DNA from: Verrucomicrobiota bacterium
Lineage (GTDB): Bacteria > Verrucomicrobiota > Verrucomicrobiia > Limisphaerales > UBA1319
Length of the DNA stretch: 35,035 nt
NCBI GenBank assembly: GCA_022709905.1
Contig: JAKLHY010000073.1
Coordinates: 1-35,035 of the forward strand
Reading direction: 5' to 3'
Below the pieces are notes generated by a model, which had not been told where the DNA came from, made no database searches, and saw nothing but the letters and a program-made list of their open reading frames with translations. Each line of letters begins with the position of its first letter. Within the stretch, counting starts at the first letter, position 1. The translations under genes and the position numbers were made by a program. Shown here piece by piece: positions 1,348 to 9,999 of the stretch.

Positions 1348-1496
1348 CGTTTGGGAACAATCACTTGCGGATCGACCTTGCAGTAATAAGAATCCCACTT
1401 CCGATCTCGAGGATCACGCCAACATGCTGCTCTGTTTGAAAAATCGATGAAATCCCTGGAGTTAAGCCCCCATGGATGCCTCCGATTCCATTCGCG

Positions 1497-1558
1497 TTCA
1501 TTGGCGCTCATTCGCGGTGGCCGTTCATCGCCGGTTGGCGCTCATTCGCGGTTCGAAT
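1497..1558. repeat. Short tandem/direct repeat: 18-bp TTGGCGCTCATTCGCGGT present twice (1501-1518, 1535-1552) within a 'CATTCGCGG'-rich segment
   Basis: Read directly from the sequence. Lies in the convergent intergenic space between the epimerase stop and the sigma-factor stop. Confidence 0.6.
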
Positions 1559-1607
1559 TGACTGGGAGGATCTCATGCGCGGAGTTGGGGCCTTAATCCA
1601 ACCGGCG

Positions 1608-3290
1608 CTACTGGGCGATGGGGGCCATCATGGTCCGGTTGAGCGTGAGCAACGATCGATTGTTGTTGATGGCGGTGGTTCTGAACTCCTGGAGTTTGGT
1701 GATCTCCTCCTCGGTAAGGAAGACGCGGGCGCGTTCGGCGGTTTTCTGGTAGATGGCATCCAGGAGTTTCAGGTTTCGTTCGGCGTCCGACTCGGAGGCG
1801 ATGTTGCGAAAGTTCAGGATCGGCACGGTCTGGTAATCGGCGGGTAACCCGGCATTCGCGAGGGCCGACTGGACTTCCTCTTGCAGGACCTGGCGGAACT
1901 GCGTGGCCTTTTCATCTTTAGCGGCATCGTTGCCGGCGAGCATGGGTTTGAATTGCTCCGCCGAGAGCCTGCTGAGCAAGGATTTCGTGTAATCCTGGTA
2001 TTGCCCCATTCCATCTTGTCCAAGCAGCGCCAGCGCCCGTTCCTGGAGGCTGGCGTCCTGGGCGACAAAGAGCTCGTTGATTTGTTCCGGGGTGAGTTTA
2101 TCGCGGAGCGCGACTGTAACATGGTCGACATTCTCCATGATATGATCGGCGAGCAGATCGTTGAGTTGATCGGACTGCTCGGCGGTCAGCTTCAGTTGGG
2201 TGGCGAGTCCCTTGTAGATGATGCCCATGCCCATTTTTTGCTGGGTGCGCAGCATCTTCCTGGCTTCCGGATTGGCGGTGACTTTGCTGATGGCGTTGCT
2301 GGACCCGATGCTGGCGTTCTCGTCGCGGAGCCTTCCGACTTCGCCTCGGAGTCGAAGGACTTCGTTGGGGTTCTTTCGGAGAGTCGCGTTCTCGGCGACG
2401 AGGGCGGCCAACCGGTTGGTCGCCTGGTCGCGCTCGCGCGTCAAGGCCTCGACCTGCGAGGCCAATGCCGAGTGTTTAGCCTGTTGTTCGCCGAGTGTAT
2501 TGACCTGGTCACGCAGGCTGGAAACCCGGATCGTCTGGTAAACTCCGAGGCCAATCGCGGCGGTTATTACGGCGGTCACAATCGTTTTTTGGATGGCAGT
2601 CATAGCTAGGGTTTGGGCAAGGGTTACAGCGGTGGAACCGGAAAGAGCGGCGGTGGACACCACCGCGCCCGAGGCGATGGCCGCGGCCAATCCCGCGGGG
2701 GCGGCCTGGATGGCGTTGGCGGAGAGTAGTGCGGCCAACCCGCCCGCTCCCACCGTCACATCGTGTTCGGCCAGGAAACCGCGAAGGCGCTCGACGGCGC
2801 GGTGAACGCGTTTCTGGGCGGCGTCCTCGCTTGCGCCCAGGGCCTCGCCGACCTCGCGCAAGGATTTGTTCTCGAAGAATCGGAGCAGGATCGCGGTGCG
2901 ATCGGCGTCGTCCAGCGACTGCATGGCCTCATCCAGCAGCGGTTCGATGCGCGACCAACCGGCCGATGTATCGTTTGCGTCACTCATCTGAAAGGCGATT
3001 TGCTCGCGGGCCTGCCGTCGGGACTCGCGGCGGACCACATCGATGGCGGCATGGCGGGTGACCTGGTAAAGCCAGGCGGTCAGAACGGTGTTCGGCTCTA
3101 GCTTGGCGGCATCGCGGGCAAGGCTGGCAAACACGGATTGCGCAACTTCCTCGGCCAGTTGGGGCAACTGCACCTGCCGCAAGGCGGCCGTGTAGACCAG
3201 GTCCAGGTGCCGCTTCACCAGCGCGGTAAACGCGTCCTGGGACTGGTCCCGCGTAAATTGCCCCAATAAATCAAGATCACTCGCGGTCAT
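1608..3290 (-). CDS. ECF (sigma-70 family) sigma factor fused to a C-terminal transmembrane helix, coiled-coil and ~230-aa extracytoplasmic-like domain
   Basis: The N-terminal ~180 aa have the ECF sigma2/sigma4 pattern (LVKRHLDLVYTAAL...; HTH ...SLREVGEALGASEDAAQKRVHRAVERLR). An Ala-rich linker and hydrophobic helix IVTAVITAAIGLGVY follow. A heptad-rich segment (QVEALTRERDQATNRLAALVAENATLRKN...) and a C-terminal globular region complete the protein. ATG at 3288-3290. Confidence 0.8.
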   Translation of the reverse strand: MTASDLDLLGQFTRDQSQDAFTALVKRHLDLVYTAALRQVQLPQLAEEVAQSVFASLARDAAKLEPNTVLTAWLYQVTRHAAIDVVRRESRRQAREQIAFQMSDANDTSAGWSRIEPLLDEAMQSLDDADRTAILLRFFENKSLREVGEALGASEDAAQKRVHRAVERLRGFLAEHDVTVGAGGLAALLSANAIQAAPAGLAAAIASGAVVSTAALSGSTAVTLAQTLAMTAIQKTIVTAVITAAIGLGVYQTIRVSSLRDQVNTLGEQQAKHSALASQVEALTRERDQATNRLAALVAENATLRKNPNEVLRLRGEVGRLRDENASIGSSNAISKVTANPEARKMLRTQQKMGMGIIYKGLATQLKLTAEQSDQLNDLLADHIMENVDHVTVALRDKLTPEQINELFVAQDASLQERALALLGQDGMGQYQDYTKSLLSRLSAEQFKPMLAGNDAAKDEKATQFRQVLQEEVQSALANAGLPADYQTVPILNFRNIASESDAERNLKLLDAIYQKTAERARVFLTEEEITKLQEFRTTAINNNRSLLTLNRTMMAPIAQ

Positions 3291-3476
3291 CTATGATTGT
3301 ATCGCCACCGATCCTCCAAATCCGACACACCAGATCGCGTCATCTCACGCAAGCGACATCGAGATGGCCCCTGACAAAAGACCTGCTGTCAGGAGGGTTT
3401 TGGCAGGAATCACTGCTTGGCTTCGTTGATCGAGCCCACGGACGCCTGTCGCTTGTCTCCCGGTTCAGAACGCCAA

Positions 3477-3592
3477 GCGAACTAAAGTCCGCGCTCCGTG
3501 GCCGTTGGCGCGTCCTGGATTTATTGCGCAGCCAAGCGGCGCGCGGAATTCATTCCCCTTCAGAGCGTCTGGCGGATTAAAATCCGCGCTCC
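3477..3592. repeat. Cluster of three 16-bp palindromes GCGGWWT-NN-AWWCCGC (3477-3492 imperfect; 3543-3558 one mismatch; 3572-3587 perfect) with conserved GCTCC / CAGAGCG flanks
   Basis: Read directly. Sits immediately 3' of the beta-helix gene stop (3625). The same bipartite arrangement recurs at 7708-7795. Confidence 0.65.
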
Positions 3593-3624
3593 GTTGAGCA
3601 AAAACAGGACATCCAGGGTGGCTC

Positions 3625-6600
3625 CTACTGCCTGAGCCGGAAGAATCGAACGCTGTCGTTCATGCTGACCTTTAAAACAATCCGGTCACCCATCTGGACG
3701 GTTCCGCCCATCCAATTTTCCCACTGCCGCAGGTCGGTCGAACTCTCGACCGCAAACCCCGACGCCGACACCGGCCAGGACAACACCAGATCGCCGGAGG
3801 CATCGACCTCGACCGTGATTCGCGGGGGGGATGACACGACCGGCTCGGTGCTCCAGGGCTCGAATTGGACGAGGTCGCTGACGCGGTTTCCCATCCCGTC
3901 CGAATTTTTGGCCGGGTGATATGGACCGGAGGCATCGCCCCACCAGTTGTGGCGCGCGTCAACCTCGGCAGGCCCCTCGTTCTGAATCCCCCAGATGCTG
4001 TTTGAAATGATCTGCGACCCGGTCACTGGCACGGGCAGACTCTGATTGCGAACCAGGATGCCGTTGTGATTGCCGGCAAACACACACCGGTCGATCTGGT
4101 GTTGGCCGGTGCTGTTATCGATCCGCAAGCCGTCGCCGTTATGATCGCGCACGCCCGTGTTCTTCAGCACCAGCGCGCCGGAGCCGGTCTTGAACAATCC
4201 CACCCCCCCCCAATAACCCCCATGGGCCACCTCGCACCACTCCAAGGTCGCCGAACCGGCGTTGACCACCTGGATCCCCTGCCACCATCCTGCCTGGCCC
4301 GTGGTCCCCTCAAACACAATCGGCGCCGACGCGGTCCCCACCGCTTTTAATTCTCCCTTCACCACGAGCGAAGGATATCGCACAAACCGAACCTTCACTC
4401 CGGGCTCGATCGTCAGCACGGCACCTTCCTCGACAATCATATCCGCCTGAACCACCATCACGAACTCGTCGCCCCCGCCTCGTTTCCAAGTCACATTAGT
4501 CGTCAAGGAACCGCCATTCACCTGCGCACTTCCCGAGGCATTGTCGTCAAACGCATTGGCCGTGTAGTCGAACACGCTGTTGATGTCGTGCAACACGCCC
4601 ATCTCCCCGTTCCCTTTGAACGAGCAGCCTGTGGCCATCACCTGGCTGGCATTGATATGCATCCCGGACTGGGTGTTGTTCGCATACATGGACGATTCCA
4701 AAACGGTGGTCCCCGGGCTGTTCACGACCTGCAAACCGTGTCCCAGCATATCGGTGACCGCGCAATGGCTCATCGTCAGATCCCCGGACCCGCTTTTCGC
4801 CATTCCCACTCGATCCCAATACCCCGCGTAACGGACCGTGCAATACGCCAACGCCGCCGATCCGGCACCTGAAATCTGCAGCGTCCGCCACCATCCCGGC
4901 CCGGGCTTCGTGCCACCCTCATCTCGGTTGGCATCGCCTCCCACGGTGTCGTCCCGCCAATCGGTCAGATACACCGGCTCGGCCGAGGTCCCCGGGACCT
5001 CGAGACGTCCGCTCACATAAAGCCCGGCATACTGGGCGAACTTGACGACAGTCCCCGCCCGAACCGTGAGCGATCCCTCTGGCGCCACCGACAAATCCTG
5101 CGATACGAAAAGAGAGTAGTCCGGCCTCAGCCCCCACACCGCCGGACCAGTCAAGATTCCTCCATCCAGATAGACGTCCATCGTGTTGCCACTGAAGGTC
5201 GAAGTCTTATCATCAAACGAAGCGTTCAAGCCCACTCGAACTCCGCGCGCATTGCCGGAGTAACGGTTGGTCTGCGAGATAAAGGAAGAATAACCAGCAC
5301 CCAATCGCAGGCCGTCCCCGCTATGATCTCGGAGGATCGAGTTCTTCAGCGTCAGGGCGCCGGAGCCGGTCTTGAGCAATCCCACGCCATCCCAGTATCC
5401 CCCGTGCGCCACCTCGCACCATTCCAGCGTCGCCGAACCGGCGTTGACCACCTGAATCCCCCGCCACCATCCGACCTCGCCTGTGGTCCCCTCGAACACA
5501 ATCGGCGCCAAGACCGTTCCGACGGCTTTCAATTCTCCCTTCACCGCCAACAGCGGATATCGCACAAATCGAACCTTCACTCCAGGCTCTACCGCTAACA
5601 CCGCTCCTTCCTCGACGATCAGATCTCCCTGAACGACCATCACGAACTCCTGGCCACCGCCCCGCTTCCATATCACGTTGTTCGTCATGGCCCCCCCGTT
5701 TACCAGCACGCTTGCCGCGGCATTGCCGGCAAACTGATTGGACTTATAGTCCAGTGAAATATTGGCTTCCTGCAAAACACCCCCCTCGCTGTTGCTGTTG
5801 AAGGCGCAGTTGGTCGCGATTACCAGGCTGGCGTTGACATACATCCCGGACCGGGTGTTGTTCGCATACGTGGACGATTCCAAAAGGGTGGTCCCCGGGC
5901 TGTTCACGACCTGCAAACCGTGTCCCAGCATATCGGTGACCGCGCAATGGCTCATCGTCAGATCCCCAGACCCGCTTTTCGCCATTCCCATTCCATCATA
6001 ATACCCGGCATAACGGACCGTGCAATACGTCAACACCGCCGATCCGGCACCTGAAATCTGCAGCGTCCGCCACCATCCCGGCCCGGGCTTCGTGCCACCC
6101 TCATCTCGGTTGGCATCGCCTCCCACGGTGTCGTCCCGCCAATCGGTCAGATACACCGGCTCGGCCGAGGTCCCCGGGACCTCGAGACGTCCGCTCACAT
6201 AAAGCCCGGCATACTGGGCGAACTTGACGACAGTCCCCGCCCGAACCGTGAGCGATCCCTCTGGCGCCACCGACAAATCCTGCGATACGAAAAGAGAGTA
6301 GTCCGGCCTCAGCCCCCACACCGCCGGACCAGTCAAGATTCCTCCATCCAGATAGACGTCCATCGTGTTGCCACTGAAGGTCGAAGTCTTATCATCAAAC
6401 GAAGCGTTCAAGCCCACTCGAACTCCGCGCGCATTGCCGGAGTAACGGTTGGTCTGCGAGATAAAGGAAGAATAACCAGCACCCAATCGCAGGCCGTCCC
6501 CGCTATGATCTCGGAGGATCGAGTTCTTCAGCGTCAGGGCGCCGGAGCCGGTCTTGAGCAATCCCACGCCATCCCAGTATCCCCCGTGCGCCACCTCGCA

Positions 6601-7041
6601 CCATTCCAGCATCGCCGAACCGGCGTTGACCACCTGAATCCCGTGCCACCAACCCGCATTACTGGTGGTTCCGTCAAACACAATCGGCGCCGAGGCCGTC
6701 CCCACCGCCCTCAATTGCCCGTGGATCCAGAGTCCCTGGTATTGGTTAAACTCAACCCTCACACCAGGCTCGATGGTCAACGTCACCCCTTCCGCAACAG
6801 TGACGGATCCTGTTACGCTGACGGGGCTGCTCGCAACAGACCATACAGTGTCGGAGGCAACAGTCCCCGAAACCTCGATGGCTTGTGTCTCGGGTGAACC
6901 GACCCAAAACAAAAACAGGAGCCAGGCCAGTCCGATCCGGCCACAGAACAGGGTCTCGTATCTATGATGGAATAGAATGGTGATCATGCGGTTACAACTT
7001 TCGAATGATAGCCAGTTCATCATGGGGCAATGACTTAGCAT
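3625..7041 (-). CDS. Large secreted right-handed parallel beta-helix repeat protein (three ~390-aa tandem repeat units plus a distinct ~75-aa C-terminal beta-rich domain)
   Basis: 1138-aa ORF. The N-terminus has a signal-peptide-like segment (…RIGLAWLLFLFWVGSPETQA|IEV). Pectate-lyase-like beta-helix repeats (NAGSA(T/M)LEWCEVAHGGYWDGVGLLKTGSGALTLKNS…, GNTMDVYLDGGILTG…) occur three times. Alternative ATG starts at M7/M8/M19 (6985-6987); the true start is uncertain. Confidence 0.8.
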   Translation of the reverse strand: MLSHCPMMNWLSFESCNRMITILFHHRYETLFCGRIGLAWLLFLFWVGSPETQAIEVSGTVASDTVWSVASSPVSVTGSVTVAEGVTLTIEPGVRVEFNQYQGLWIHGQLRAVGTASAPIVFDGTTSNAGWWHGIQVVNAGSAMLEWCEVAHGGYWDGVGLLKTGSGALTLKNSILRDHSGDGLRLGAGYSSFISQTNRYSGNARGVRVGLNASFDDKTSTFSGNTMDVYLDGGILTGPAVWGLRPDYSLFVSQDLSVAPEGSLTVRAGTVVKFAQYAGLYVSGRLEVPGTSAEPVYLTDWRDDTVGGDANRDEGGTKPGPGWWRTLQISGAGSAVLTYCTVRYAGYYDGMGMAKSGSGDLTMSHCAVTDMLGHGLQVVNSPGTTLLESSTYANNTRSGMYVNASLVIATNCAFNSNSEGGVLQEANISLDYKSNQFAGNAAASVLVNGGAMTNNVIWKRGGGQEFVMVVQGDLIVEEGAVLAVEPGVKVRFVRYPLLAVKGELKAVGTVLAPIVFEGTTGEVGWWRGIQVVNAGSATLEWCEVAHGGYWDGVGLLKTGSGALTLKNSILRDHSGDGLRLGAGYSSFISQTNRYSGNARGVRVGLNASFDDKTSTFSGNTMDVYLDGGILTGPAVWGLRPDYSLFVSQDLSVAPEGSLTVRAGTVVKFAQYAGLYVSGRLEVPGTSAEPVYLTDWRDDTVGGDANRDEGGTKPGPGWWRTLQISGAGSAALAYCTVRYAGYWDRVGMAKSGSGDLTMSHCAVTDMLGHGLQVVNSPGTTVLESSMYANNTQSGMHINASQVMATGCSFKGNGEMGVLHDINSVFDYTANAFDDNASGSAQVNGGSLTTNVTWKRGGGDEFVMVVQADMIVEEGAVLTIEPGVKVRFVRYPSLVVKGELKAVGTASAPIVFEGTTGQAGWWQGIQVVNAGSATLEWCEVAHGGYWGGVGLFKTGSGALVLKNTGVRDHNGDGLRIDNSTGQHQIDRCVFAGNHNGILVRNQSLPVPVTGSQIISNSIWGIQNEGPAEVDARHNWWGDASGPYHPAKNSDGMGNRVSDLVQFEPWSTEPVVSSPPRITVEVDASGDLVLSWPVSASGFAVESSTDLRQWENWMGGTVQMGDRIVLKVSMNDSVRFFRLRQ
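4690..6641. repeat. Intragenic tandem duplication: 4690-5459 and 5872-6641 are ~99% identical (period 1182 bp); a third, more diverged copy lies ~3900-4600
   Basis: Identical alternative-frame ORFs 4838..5020 = 6020..6202 and 4919..5137 = 6101..6319. Direct comparison of the nucleotide strings confirms the identity. The protein repeats 1 and 2 are identical over ~250 aa. Confidence 0.85.
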
Positions 7042-7707
7042 GATTGCTTTTCAGTGGCAATGCCATTGCTTGTTTTATCTTCGTCAAATGCGGCCAACCA
7101 TTCCTCCGACCCCCTCGGGAATCGATCCGGGGCAACGCTGTGGGGCGCGCGGCTGCTCGGAAGGCACGCTGGATTGAGTCCGCAGTTGGAAGAACTGTTG
7201 TGGCGGGCCGCCGGGCGGAAGGTTGATAACGGAATTTCAATTGGTGGCGGTGAAGTCCAGGAGCACGGGCCAATCGATCAGATTGGAGGAACTGAGCACC
7301 GGGTAGTTTCCTCCAACTTCAGACCTGATCCAACAGAGCAAGCCGTCCGCCCGATGCGCCCGGCAGCGAACGGTCCGTGCAGCCGATAAAACGGGTCGGA
7401 CAGGCGTTTTCGAGTGTCTTGGGTGGATCGAAGGTAATCGATATGATGAGTTCATGCCTTGATTCCGCATTCCCGCGTAGATATTGAGCGGCCAAGCCAC
7501 AAATGCTCGGACACAAGATGGAGTGCAATCCTATTTTGATGTTCTGCCGCAGTGTGCTATGGGGTCCCGAGCATAATTCAGATTCAAGATTCGGTCGGAA
7601 TAAAAAACCAGATGCAAATTCAAGTCAATAAATTCTGCCTCTCCGAAAACCGCAAATCAAACGACTGAACCGCGCCAATAAACGCGAATCATGGCAGGAT
7701 AAATCAT

Positions 7708-7795
7708 GCGGGATAAATCCCGCGCTCCAGCTTGCCGAGTGCCTCTCGCTTCGGAGCTCGGAATAATCGGTGCGCGGAATTCATTCCGCAGAGCG
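7708..7795. repeat. Second copy of the bipartite palindromic element: perfect 16-bp palindromes GCGGGATAAATCCCGC (7708-7723) and GCGGAATTCATTCCGC (7774-7789) with GCTCC / CAGAGCG flanks
   Basis: Read directly. Same order, orientation and ~43-nt spacing as the 3477-3592 copy. Lies in the 900-bp intergenic region upstream of the beta-helix gene. Confidence 0.65.
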
Positions 7796-7941
7796 ATTTG
7801 GCCAACAACATACCTCCGATTTGATTCGCGTCTATTGGCGTGAATTCGCGGTTCGATTTTTTCGCGAGTATCTTACGTGAGGATTTGGGAGCGATAAGAC
7901 CGATTGCCAGACGAAATCGGAAATTGGTTTTGGCAACCGGT

Positions 7942-9840
7942 CTAGGCCGGTTCCGGTGAAAGCGCGGGCACGGTTCCATTGCGAAACACCCGAAAGCCCA
8001 CCACAATCATTCCGAAAGCCAGGGCGAAAAGGATCAGACAAGCCGCAGTCAGGGACCAGTTTTTACTGAGGATATTCAACCGAAGGGTGATGGCGGTCGA
8101 AGTCAGCGTGGTCACAAACATGATGACGCAAGGAATCAGGGCAAAAGCGTAACGGCGCCCGTGCTGGCGCATCCAGGCGGCGACCACCAGGAGAGCCATG
8201 GCCGCCATCATCTGGTTGGCGGACCCAAACACACGCCAGAGCACAGGCAGGGCGTTCCACCGGGATAAGACATACATCCCCAACACAGCCAGGCCGGTAT
8301 TGAACCAGATGTTCAGCAACAACGGGTGCGGCCGGCTCCAGACGATTTTCCAGAGTTCCTCCAACAGGTAACGTGTCAGGCGAACCGCAACGTCCAACGT
8401 GGTGACGACAAAGCCCTCGAGCAGGAGAATGCCGAAGACCGTCCCGCACCAGACGGGGACATGGAAGGCCGAATGCAGGAGGTTGCCGGTTGCCAAAGAG
8501 ATCGCGAGCACGGGGTTTTTATCCAGGTGGGTAATTTGCAGATAATCGGTTCGGGCCAGCCCCACGAACAGCGTCAGAATCACGGCCACAGCCAGCATGG
8601 ATTCGAGCAGCATGCCGCGATAGGCGATGCGCCGGGCGTCGCCCTCGTTGGCCAGTTGTTTGGCGCTGGTCCCGCTCGACACCAGGCAATGAAAACCGGA
8701 GATGGCTCCGCAGGAAACCGTGATCAGCATCATCGGCCAGAGCATCCCAATATATTGCATGCCGTCCGCGTAATTGAACCACGGCATATCTCGCGTTCCC
8801 ATGGCGGTCGAAACACCGGTCGAGGTCCCGGCCCCCCAGGTCAATAGACCCGCAAAAATGCCGATCACGCCCACATAGAGAATCTGGACATTGACGAAGT
8901 CCCTGGGCATGAGCAGGAGCCAGACCGGAATCGCCGAGGCCAGCACCACATAAAGCGTCATGAAGATGCGCCATTGTTCGACAGAAACATTCACCGGAAA
9001 CTTGAGTCCCAGCATCACGGAACTCAAACAGACGAAGGCGGCCAGTGGATAGGTGAAACGGGCGGATAAGTTTCGCCGGTAGATCAGCCAGCCCAGGAAT
9101 GGCGCGCAGGCCGTAATGAGCAACACACTCGTCGATGCAATCCCTCCAATGCGAGCCATCAGGGTGTAGGTTTTGACGGGCGCCGCGGCCAGCAACTCGC
9201 CCTCCGGCACCGCGGTTTTCGAATCGGGAGCGGGAGCCTTGACCGCAATCGATGTGGGCATCCAGGGGTGTGCGGGATAGGCGACCATCGGTTTTCCCGG
9301 ATACTGATCCGCGTAGGCGCGCAGTGTCTGTTCCGGGGGCGACTGCAGTCCGACCTTGCCGGCAGGATAAGCGCTTGTCAGGGCCACCACACTGAGATTC
9401 AGAAACGTGGCGGTGATCATGAACAGGCAAAGAAGCAGGAAGCCGATCATGAGTCCGTAACCGGTCGGACCCAGGACCTTGCGAGCGATGTCGGCGATGG
9501 AATGTCCTTTTTCGCGCACCGAGATGATCAAGGCCGATAAATCATGGACGCCCCCCAGGAAAATGGCGCCGACCACCACCCATACCAGGGCGGGAACAAT
9601 CCCGTAAGCGCAAGCCAGCGTGGGCCCCACGATGGGCCCCGCGCCGGCAATGGCCGCAAAATGATGCGCAAACAACACATGGGGCTTGGCGGGAACGTAA
9701 TCGACCCCATCCTGGAGTTCATGGGCGGGGGTGCGGCGCTGGGGATCGACCTGGAAAAGCCGCTCGATGCGAGTTCCGTAAAACCGGTTGCCGGCCCAAT
9801 AACAAGCAAAAGCGACGGCCAAGATAATCAGGACTGACAT
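7942..9840 (-). CDS. cstA: Carbon starvation protein CstA (peptide/pyruvate transporter family)
   Basis: Strong similarity to CstA hallmarks (…NRFYG…, DGVDYVPAKPHVLFAHHFAAIAGAGPIVGP…, many TM helices). The homologous N-terminus begins at the internal ATG (MSVLIILAV…, 9838-9840). The longest ORF extends to 9954 with a non-homologous leader. Confidence 0.85.
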   Translation of the reverse strand: MSVLIILAVAFACYWAGNRFYGTRIERLFQVDPQRRTPAHELQDGVDYVPAKPHVLFAHHFAAIAGAGPIVGPTLACAYGIVPALVWVVVGAIFLGGVHDLSALIISVREKGHSIADIARKVLGPTGYGLMIGFLLLCLFMITATFLNLSVVALTSAYPAGKVGLQSPPEQTLRAYADQYPGKPMVAYPAHPWMPTSIAVKAPAPDSKTAVPEGELLAAAPVKTYTLMARIGGIASTSVLLITACAPFLGWLIYRRNLSARFTYPLAAFVCLSSVMLGLKFPVNVSVEQWRIFMTLYVVLASAIPVWLLLMPRDFVNVQILYVGVIGIFAGLLTWGAGTSTGVSTAMGTRDMPWFNYADGMQYIGMLWPMMLITVSCGAISGFHCLVSSGTSAKQLANEGDARRIAYRGMLLESMLAVAVILTLFVGLARTDYLQITHLDKNPVLAISLATGNLLHSAFHVPVWCGTVFGILLLEGFVVTTLDVAVRLTRYLLEELWKIVWSRPHPLLLNIWFNTGLAVLGMYVLSRWNALPVLWRVFGSANQMMAAMALLVVAAWMRQHGRRYAFALIPCVIMFVTTLTSTAITLRLNILSKNWSLTAACLILFALAFGMIVVGFRVFRNGTVPALSPEPA

Positions 9841-9999
9841 AACGTATTGAGGTTGACCGTACGAGCTTAAGGCAACGATCCTGTTTGGCAAGCGCGGGAT
9901 TTTGTTGGCATTCCGCTTGACAATGGCCGGCCATTCAGGAAAACCGTTGGGCACCTAAATCATTCCATTGCCCAAAAGGCGCTGTAAAGATTTCAATCT

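Follow-up and report, generated by a model that had tools for sequence, protein, structure and literature searches.

The 35,035-nt contig analysed here (referred to as the window; JAKLHY010000073.1 of assembly GCA_022709905.1, a Verrucomicrobiota metagenome-assembled genome (MAG) recovered in several anaerobic-digester metagenomes) carries five short palindromes in the gaps on either side of a gene for a beta-helix protein (3625–7041, minus strand). An earlier note on this DNA had placed them at 3477–3492, 3543–3558, 3572–3587, 7708–7723 and 7774–7789, and both the positions and the sequences are as claimed there. The first three form locus 1, between the stop codon of the beta-helix gene and the start of a gene encoding an extracytoplasmic function (ECF)-like sigma-70 protein with a long extension (1608–3290, minus strand), and the other two form locus 2, between the stop codon of the CstA gene (7942–9954, minus strand) and the start of the beta-helix gene, so that all five are located in intergenic gaps. 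We conclude with good confidence that the palindromes are repetitive extragenic palindromic (REP) units belonging to a REP/REPIN family that is associated with REP-associated tyrosine transposases (RAYTs) and is widespread in Verrucomicrobiota.

A loose palindrome pattern (GCGGNNTNNANNCCGC, at most one mismatch) matched eight times in the window, compared to 2.71 ± 1.76 matches expected, with 1 of 100 shuffled sequences reaching eight; the three additional matches (at 7168, 14529 and 32789) are without the tail described below and are chance-like. When this tail was included, a single 21-nt pattern (GCGGRWTAAAWYCCGCGCTCC, at most three mismatches) recovered exactly the five copies, on either strand, versus 0.01 expected. 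Because two of these matches are on the minus strand, the GCGGAATTCATTCC-type palindrome, previously treated as a second kind, is the same unit inverted. The unit is an asymmetric sequence of 21 nt, consisting of a 6-bp stem (GCGGnn/nnCCGC), a T(G/A)AA loop and a GCNCC tail (usually GCTCC), and a weak ARTT extension of the tail brings it to approximately 25 nt. Read on the opposite strand it is 5′-GGAGC followed by the hairpin, and as a single-stranded oligonucleotide the tag and hairpin together are 5′-GGAGCGCGGACTTCAGTCCGC-3′. The steric objection raised against an RNA hairpin, namely a loop of only 2 nt, is void because the fold is a 6-bp stem with a 4-nt loop. The spacing also needed revision, from 41–43 nt to 45 nt between the palindromes at both loci, the two GCNCC tails being exactly 40 nt apart.

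At locus 1, unit 1 (3477–3497, plus strand, GCGAACTAAAGTCCGC + GCTCC) is slightly degenerate, with only five of the six pairs in its stem, while its loop is TAAA and its tail exact, and is followed by a 40-nt tail-to-tail linker (3498–3537), which is self-complementary and forms a hairpin of its own. Unit 4 (3538–3558, minus strand, reading GGGGAATGAATTCCGC + GCGCC on that strand) and unit 2 (3572–3592, plus strand, GCGGATTAAAATCCGC + GCTCC) together form a canonical doublet with the tails pointing outward (3538–3592, 13-nt spacer), 32 nt past the beta-helix stop codon. At locus 2, unit 3 (7708–7728, plus strand, GCGGGATAAATCCCGC + GCTCC) and unit 5 (7769–7789, minus strand, reading GCGGAATGAATTCCGC + GCACC on that strand) enclose a linker of 40 nt (7729–7768), the sequence of which is unrelated to that of the linker at locus 1. 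Apart from the units, the length of the linker and the motif AGAGCG(A)TYTGGC, the two loci have no sequence in common. Ten near-identical assemblies carry identical repeats at both loci, and are therefore uninformative on conservation.

Evidence that the unit is maintained as a stem-loop came from copies sampled in other genomes. In the 189 units collected with a general finder, the tail was GCNCC in every case and GCTCC in 160, and the loop was TGAA or TAAA as read relative to the tail, such that both loop and tail are conserved in sequence. For the stem we fixed no more than the outer GCG/CGC, loop and tail in the search, leaving the three inner stem positions free, and 161 of the 165 units thus obtained had a fully Watson-Crick stem. 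Five stem versions were represented (GAA/TTC, GAC/GTC, GGA/TCC, GCA/TGC and GAT/ATC), and the 13 distinct sequences included double changes at two stem pairs, giving a covariation score of 0.329 versus 0.085 in shuffles; none of 500 shuffles scored as high or reached the observed percentage of paired positions. Pairing in this short stem-loop has thus been maintained in evolution, as it is in REPs. Between lineages only two inner stem pairs differ, for instance as GGACT/AGTCC around the RAYT genes of L144, L148, L150 and L153 (L001–L153 label the sampled loci or contigs, with coordinates given within each). HUH enzymes of the IS200/IS605-RAYT type recognise just such a combination, a hairpin next to a single-stranded tag.

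The distribution of the unit was assessed by scanning public genomes, represented by one genome per species (596 Gbp), for the 19-mer GGAATGAATTCCGCGCNCC. This was present in at least 118 stretches of 8 kb, compared to approximately 17 chance matches by our own arithmetic, and the stretches came from at least 68 species-level assemblies, of which at least 62 are named Verrucomicrobiota; among the matches listed, the named carriers include Akkermansiaceae, Luteolibacter, Prosthecobacter, Haloferula, Pedosphaera, Limisphaerales and others. A scan of viral contigs with the same 19-mer gave no matches. The sampled stretches (846 kb) contained 187 units, versus none in reversed-sequence controls, and 131 of these (70%) lay outside long open reading frames (ORFs), as did 12% of random positions. 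The search for further copies and their positions relative to genes, which the earlier note had proposed, thus shows on public genomes a dispersed and mostly extragenic family, present well above chance. Typical units or doublets were also seen in three contigs from MAGs named Bifidobacteriaceae, Armatimonadetes and Chitinophagaceae (L049, L060 and L106, respectively), which may be mis-binned, or the repeat may be present outside the phylum.

The same collection bears on the suggestion that the 16-bp palindromes are operators of a dimeric transcription factor that regulates the beta-helix gene, for example a LacI-type repressor or a protein acting with the ECF-type sigma factor. The perfect dyad symmetry and the position on both sides of a single gene, next to a sigma-factor gene, are in keeping with such a role. 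However, the unit as a whole is asymmetric, its loop always being T(G/A)AA relative to the GCTCC tail, and the stem varies by compensatory changes, whereas an operator should keep the sequence of its half-sites. Furthermore, the sites adjoin unrelated housekeeping genes in the 62 or more Verrucomicrobial species, they are mostly 3′ of genes, with 8 of 106 in gaps between divergent genes, and there are an estimated hundred or so clusters per genome. We consider operator sites extremely improbable. CRISPR arrays, DNA uptake sequences, parS and attC were also considered, by reasoning only, and fail on copy pattern, density or asymmetry.

Like the REPs of other bacteria, the units often occur as inverted pairs or in alternating clusters. 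Among the pairs of neighbours within 300 nt of each other in other Verrucomicrobiota, 51 of 55 were inverted with the tails outward, in the layout GGAGC-hairpin, a spacer of approximately 17–30 or 62–67 nt, and hairpin-GCTCC; in the window the orientations are + − + at locus 1 and + − at locus 2. Comparison of orthologous doublets across species showed that the units are nearly unchanged (at most one base differs, in the tail) while the spacers are scrambled, and one orthologous site was occupied in one of two species compared but empty in the other (L040 versus L121). No target-site duplication was found at this filled/empty site or around the orthologous doublets.

These observations also separate the two parts of the earlier suggestion of a REP/MITE-like element. 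Doublets, and the composite repeat of 260 nt described below, could be MITEs (miniature transposable elements with inverted repeats) derived from a DDE-type insertion sequence, with the 21-nt units serving as terminal inverted repeats, and the inverted-repeat architecture with sharp outer ends, the presence or absence at orthologous sites and the long inverted arms of the composite all agree with this. Against it stand the lack of any visible target-site duplication and the absence of a DDE transposase between unit pairs in approximately 0.95 Mb of sampled loci; each supposed terminal repeat is itself a covarying hairpin, and the only enzyme found framed by units is a RAYT of the HUH/Tyr type. 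An origin as MITEs is thus very improbable, and it is the REP part of the suggestion that is strongly supported, by the dispersed extragenic family, the covarying hairpin, the inverted doublets and the RAYT genes flanked by units.

These RAYT genes were not apparent at first, as all-against-all clustering of the ORFs near the units returned only housekeeping genes, with the RAYT concealed in a cluster that was chained to aminoacyl-tRNA synthetases. A phmmer search with E. coli RayT (from NC_000913) against six-frame ORFs of the sampled loci identified a protein of 212 aa (L015, 1759–2397), which matches Pfam Y1_Tnp (35.8 bits) and the NCBIfam model NF047646, 'REP-associated tyrosine transposase' (86.3 bits, cut-off 80). 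Its only match in the PDB was 4ER8 (TnpA-REP), with PNHVHVL aligned to PEHMHCI, and SYIRNNPVKAGL to DYIYINPVKHGW, the latter placing a tyrosine of the query at Tyr115; both the HUH motif and the equivalent of the catalytic tyrosine are therefore present. The gene sits between two unit doublets, and the RAYT gene was flanked by units on both sides in all seven relatives that were checked (L015, L111, L144, L148, L149, L150 and L153, where L148 is Luteolibacter sp. SL250 and L149 is L. arcticus). Doublets flank the gene in most of the six further genomes, and the left and right flanks share one stem variant within each of L144, L148, L150 and L153. The L015 protein has more than 5000 homologues, the closest of which are named Luteolibacter, Akkermansiaceae or Haloferula, and many carry the JGI label 'REP element-mobilizing transposase RayT'; three widely sampled homologues that were looked up as candidates for the window's own RAYT all belong to other organisms. 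The chaining to tRNA synthetases in the ORF clustering arose from a match to E. coli RayT (E = 1.2e-05) at approximately 1958–2279 of L097, inside a long ORF annotated as leucyl-tRNA synthetase, which is either due to chance or drift, or is a RAYT-like insertion.

The Luteolibacter RAYT gene has ureG (cobW family) and ureD as its neighbours in the operon for urease accessory proteins, and is flanked by units on either side (L015 1688–2409, L111 6941–7643, L148 9932–10663 and L149 9922–10648). A related species has ureG, a single doublet and ureD at the corresponding position, with no RAYT gene (L042 3890–4070), and from this comparison it looks as if the RAYT gene together with one doublet may have been gained or lost by recombination between doublets. 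In two other lineages, a RAYT of the same clade directly follows gyrA and is framed by doublets (L150 3931–4636 and L153 3971–4630); in one of the two it is followed by genes for CstA and an ECF sigma factor, which also neighbour the repeats in the window. A second RAYT was found in an Akkermansiaceae MAG (L021 1400–2180) as an ORF fragment of 161 aa (NF047646, 77 bits), framed by the GTAG-tagged REP GTAGGGCGTGTCCGCCGTGGCGCGCC; the same 8-kb stretch of this MAG has a unit of the GGAGC type at 3412–3432, and hence two REP-RAYT systems coexist.

The mechanism we propose follows that of E. coli TnpA-REP/RAYT and of the IS200/IS605 enzymes. A single-copy RAYT of the HUH/Tyr type would recognise the hairpin and tag on single-stranded DNA, with the adjacent tag positioning the cut, as suggested by TnpA-REP and the IS200/IS605 enzymes (PMC3479197). 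Nicking and rejoining by the RAYT near the hairpin could then spread and maintain units and doublets, and judging from the homology of the repeat, the window's own genome would also possess such a RAYT. A host-level role may have been added, for which stabilisation of mRNA 3′ ends, or damping of translation where the hairpin lies a few nt from the stop codon, are candidates.

Several points weigh against assigning the palindromes to a REP-RAYT system. RAYT-driven transposition of REPs has, to our knowledge, never been shown directly, even in model organisms. The phmmer search with E. coli RayT found no RAYT gene in the window or in approximately 105 kb of related digester contigs (L129–L141), so that for the window's genome the RAYT link is drawn solely from homology of the repeat. 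From the comparison of the filled and empty sites (L040 versus L121), neither a target-site duplication nor a defined insertion site could be read. The arrangement of the window, with tails inward and a 40-nt linker, was seen in none of the 55 neighbour pairs from other Verrucomicrobiota. Copy number, which in REP/REPIN systems is high (tens to over 100 per genome), is here an extrapolation, as the 14 extra clusters in the 846 kb give approximately one cluster per 60 kb, and thus in the order of a hundred per genome, which is a density estimate rather than a count per genome, and at the low end compared to known REP/REPIN systems. The two published REP super-families are defined by a GTAG or CGTC tag (Di Nocera 2013, PMC3733652), unlike the GGAGC tag found here. 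Finally, published REP classes are described as species-specific and as co-evolving with their RAYT (PMC2817692, PMC3686654), whereas this unit is near-identical in at least 62 species from several families.

The units could alternatively exist mainly for a function at the RNA level in the host, such as stabilisation of the upstream mRNA, termination of transcription, or the slowing of terminating ribosomes by a hairpin placed in a 3′ UTR or between genes of an operon, with any link to the transposase being secondary. Their location gives some support to this, since 16 of the 30 singletons with the tail first are found 0–12 nt after a stop codon, and doublets fill gaps between stop and start codons within operons, as between ureG and ureD. 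The near-constancy of units at orthologous sites while the spacers decay implies constraint on each copy. The REPs of E. coli protect the 3′ ends of mRNA, and reduce translation when close to the stop codon. On the other hand, the singletons are not biased towards either orientation with respect to the gene upstream (30 tail-first, 36 palindrome-first), tag and loop have kept their sequence, for which a plain hairpin function would have no need, and the flanking of RAYT genes by units in all seven genomes is left to explain. A role in termination would call for a U-tract after the hairpin, and there is none: the position frequencies of the units show no run of T following the unit, unlike an intrinsic terminator. 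Terminator prediction yielded a single weak site at locus 2, which is within shuffle expectation, and none at locus 1, and both promoter and terminator scans were uninformative at the two loci. We therefore see a mainly RNA-level function as possible but doubtful. It is also compatible with the REP-RAYT interpretation as an added, exapted role, and by analogy with the REPs of E. coli, the closeness of units to stop codons makes it plausible that they also act on mRNA.

The two units of locus 2 are embedded in a larger composite repeat of approximately 260 nt (7640–7900), an imperfect palindrome which consists of a left arm, a unit, the 40-nt linker, an inverted unit, a right arm and a tail. 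The left arm (7654–7691, plus strand) is an inverted copy of the right arm (7822–7859, plus strand), the 38-nt inverted repeat being 76% complementary, and the right arm displays a motif with a periodicity of approximately 10 nt (ATTCGCGnnn/ATTGGCGnnn). A metagenome scan for the central part (TAAA..CCGCGCTCC, 35–45 nt, GG.GCGCGGAATTCA) returned 13 stretches, which correspond to seven distinct loci besides those of the window, and every one of these has a linker of 39–40 nt. They match locus 2 through the units, the linker and approximately 110 nt beyond (81–88% identity over 90–190 nt), with homology starting exactly at 7708 and running to approximately 7898, and the linker sequence is conserved in all of them. 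Several copies have a longer left half, and the full composite is thus an imperfect palindrome of approximately 260–330 nt. The copies adjoin unrelated genes (encoding leucine-rich repeat, GH31, GFO/IDH, sigma-70 and other proteins), and are found in either orientation; the gaps that hold them include convergent, divergent and co-directional ones.

All seven come from the same digester metagenomes as the window, and the ERZ795054 contigs that carry them have a coverage of 7.5–7.8, versus 8.4 for the contig of the window, which fits copies residing in one genome or one population, but is not proof of it. The recurrent bipartite arrangement recognised in the earlier note is therefore real. Its description as one element of approximately 95 nt on both flanks of the beta-helix gene holds for the equal linker length, but the pair at locus 2 is the core of the larger repeat, while locus 1 (3477–3592) is better described as a three-REP cluster (+ − +), resembling a bacterial interspersed mosaic element (BIME).

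The composite could also be interpreted as a family of small structured RNA genes, or as a cis-regulatory RNA, given its strong predicted folding (z = −4.1 as DNA and −5.3 as RNA for 7640–7870, compared to shuffles) and at least eight conserved intergenic copies. However, such folding is expected of any imperfect palindrome, on either strand. A search of the window against Rfam 15 at gathering thresholds gave no match, and relaxing this to E-values up to 10 for the two loci and a canonical doublet gave chance-level matches only. None of the 28 predicted pairs in the composite linker showed compensatory changes, the copies being too similar to each other, and copies lie in both orientations next to unrelated neighbours, including between convergent genes. 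We regard an RNA gene or regulatory RNA as quite unlikely here. The periodic motif of the arms is found separately as well: a partial arm with tail, lacking units, is present at 1476–1590 (plus strand), in the convergent gap between an epimerase gene and the sigma-factor gene, where it reads CATTCGCGTT, CATTGGCGCT and CATTCGCGGT, and an unrelated MAG of the Verrucomicrobiales (L026) has it three times, as CATCCGTGTT, flanking a doublet. The motif may represent a second repeat module in this phylum, independent of the first.

REP/REPIN systems with their RAYT are known from E. coli, Pseudomonas fluorescens and Stenotrophomonas (Nunvar 2010, PMC2817692; Bertels & Rainey 2011, PMC3116915; Messing 2012, PMC3479197). 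The Verrucomicrobiota family shares with these the short, GC-rich and extragenic hairpins, the unpaired tag at one end, the frequent arrangement as inverted pairs, the clustering 3′ of genes, and a RAYT that is framed by the repeats, passes NF047646, and retains the HUH motif and the catalytic tyrosine. It differs in its shorter hairpin, as the 6-bp stem and 4-nt loop make up a unit of 21 nt in all. The window also resembles the BIMEs of enterobacteria in its alternating orientation and fixed linkers (+ − +, with 40 nt tail-to-tail and 13 nt head-to-head), the 39–40-nt linker being repeated in the seven other composite copies. In contrast to BIMEs, copies of the composite share a conserved linker sequence to which that of locus 1 is unrelated, and no long tandem arrays were seen; moreover, E. 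coli BIMEs have been characterised by the binding of integration host factor (IHF), gyrase or Pol I, whereas the likeness here is one of sequence arrangement alone. As a long imperfect palindrome in intergenic regions, inserted in either orientation, the composite is similar to the enterobacterial repetitive intergenic consensus/intergenic repeat unit (ERIC/IRU) and Correia-type repeats (100–150 nt), but it is approximately twice as long, is built on two REP units of the RAYT type, and displays no visible TA target duplication.

GTAG-tagged REPs have been reported for a member of the same phylum, Opitutus terrae (Di Nocera 2013, PMC3733652). These are the same kind of element, and the GTAG type frames the second RAYT of L021, but stem, loop and tag differ from those of the unit described here, and the two classes can coexist in one genome, as in L021. 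No paper came up in full-text searches of the literature for GGAATGAATTCCGC in either orientation, and keyword searches led no further than the Opitutus GTAG repeats and general papers on REPs and RAYTs. The kind of element is therefore well known, but we could not find the GGAGC-tagged class described in the literature searched. Its departures from the published picture are the GGAGC tag, the very short hairpin and a unit that is near-unchanged across dozens of species, and the mosaic of the digester lineage, with tails inward and a fixed linker, is a further local variant.

The placement of the repeats around the beta-helix gene looks coincidental. Within this gene a 1182-nt tandem repeat is present in three copies, 77–82% identical to the reference copy, and the palindromes had been thought to bracket it as a duplicating surface-protein gene, but the internal repeats do not involve the units, and the simplest explanation is that two members of the family lie in neighbouring gaps. 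The flanking repeats are identical across assemblies although the length of the gene differs, and there is no evidence that they regulate the beta-helix gene or drive its duplication. Among otherwise identical assemblies the protein is called as 726 aa, as 1120 aa or as split products of 538 and 377 aa, while the longest ORF in the window encodes 1138 aa; these differences could be real variation in copy number or assembly collapse. Between the beta-helix start and the composite is a non-coding stretch of approximately 600 nt with a lower GC content (7042–7640), part of a 900-nt intergenic region (GC 0.53 for 7001–8000). The sigma factor on the other side (560 aa) has sigma-70 regions 2 and 4 within its first 170 residues, followed by approximately 390 residues without a Pfam match, and could be an ECF sigma factor fused to an uncharacterised C-terminal domain.

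For annotation, the repeat provides a signature, GCGGnnT(G/A)AAnnCCGC-GCTCC, with which these elements can be found, and it accounts for a motif that recurs between genes in the genomes and MAGs of Verrucomicrobiota. Further, it explains spurious small ORFs called across the repeats, such as that at 3293–3580 in the window, and the '...AEFIP...' ends of ORFs that run into a unit, such as the RAYT ORF in L015.

We tentatively propose, as a view that may well prove wrong, that this undescribed GGAGC-tagged REP class has hardly changed in sequence over much of the phylum, accompanied by a RAYT that is inherited vertically and is located, for example, between ureG and ureD in Luteolibacter as a whole and directly behind gyrA in other lineages. 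With copies that stay constant while their spacers decay, it would represent a domesticated pair of repeat and enzyme with a function at the level of the host, rather than a fast-evolving selfish element, to which the digester lineage would have added a new BIME-like mosaic of 260–330 nt. A single unit common to dozens of species, with a non-canonical tag and conserved copy by copy, contrasts with the picture of REPs as fast-evolving elements, and the cultured members of Luteolibacter, Prosthecobacter and Haloferula are useful for asking whether REPs are kept for the benefit of the host, and how a RAYT reads its hairpin and tag.

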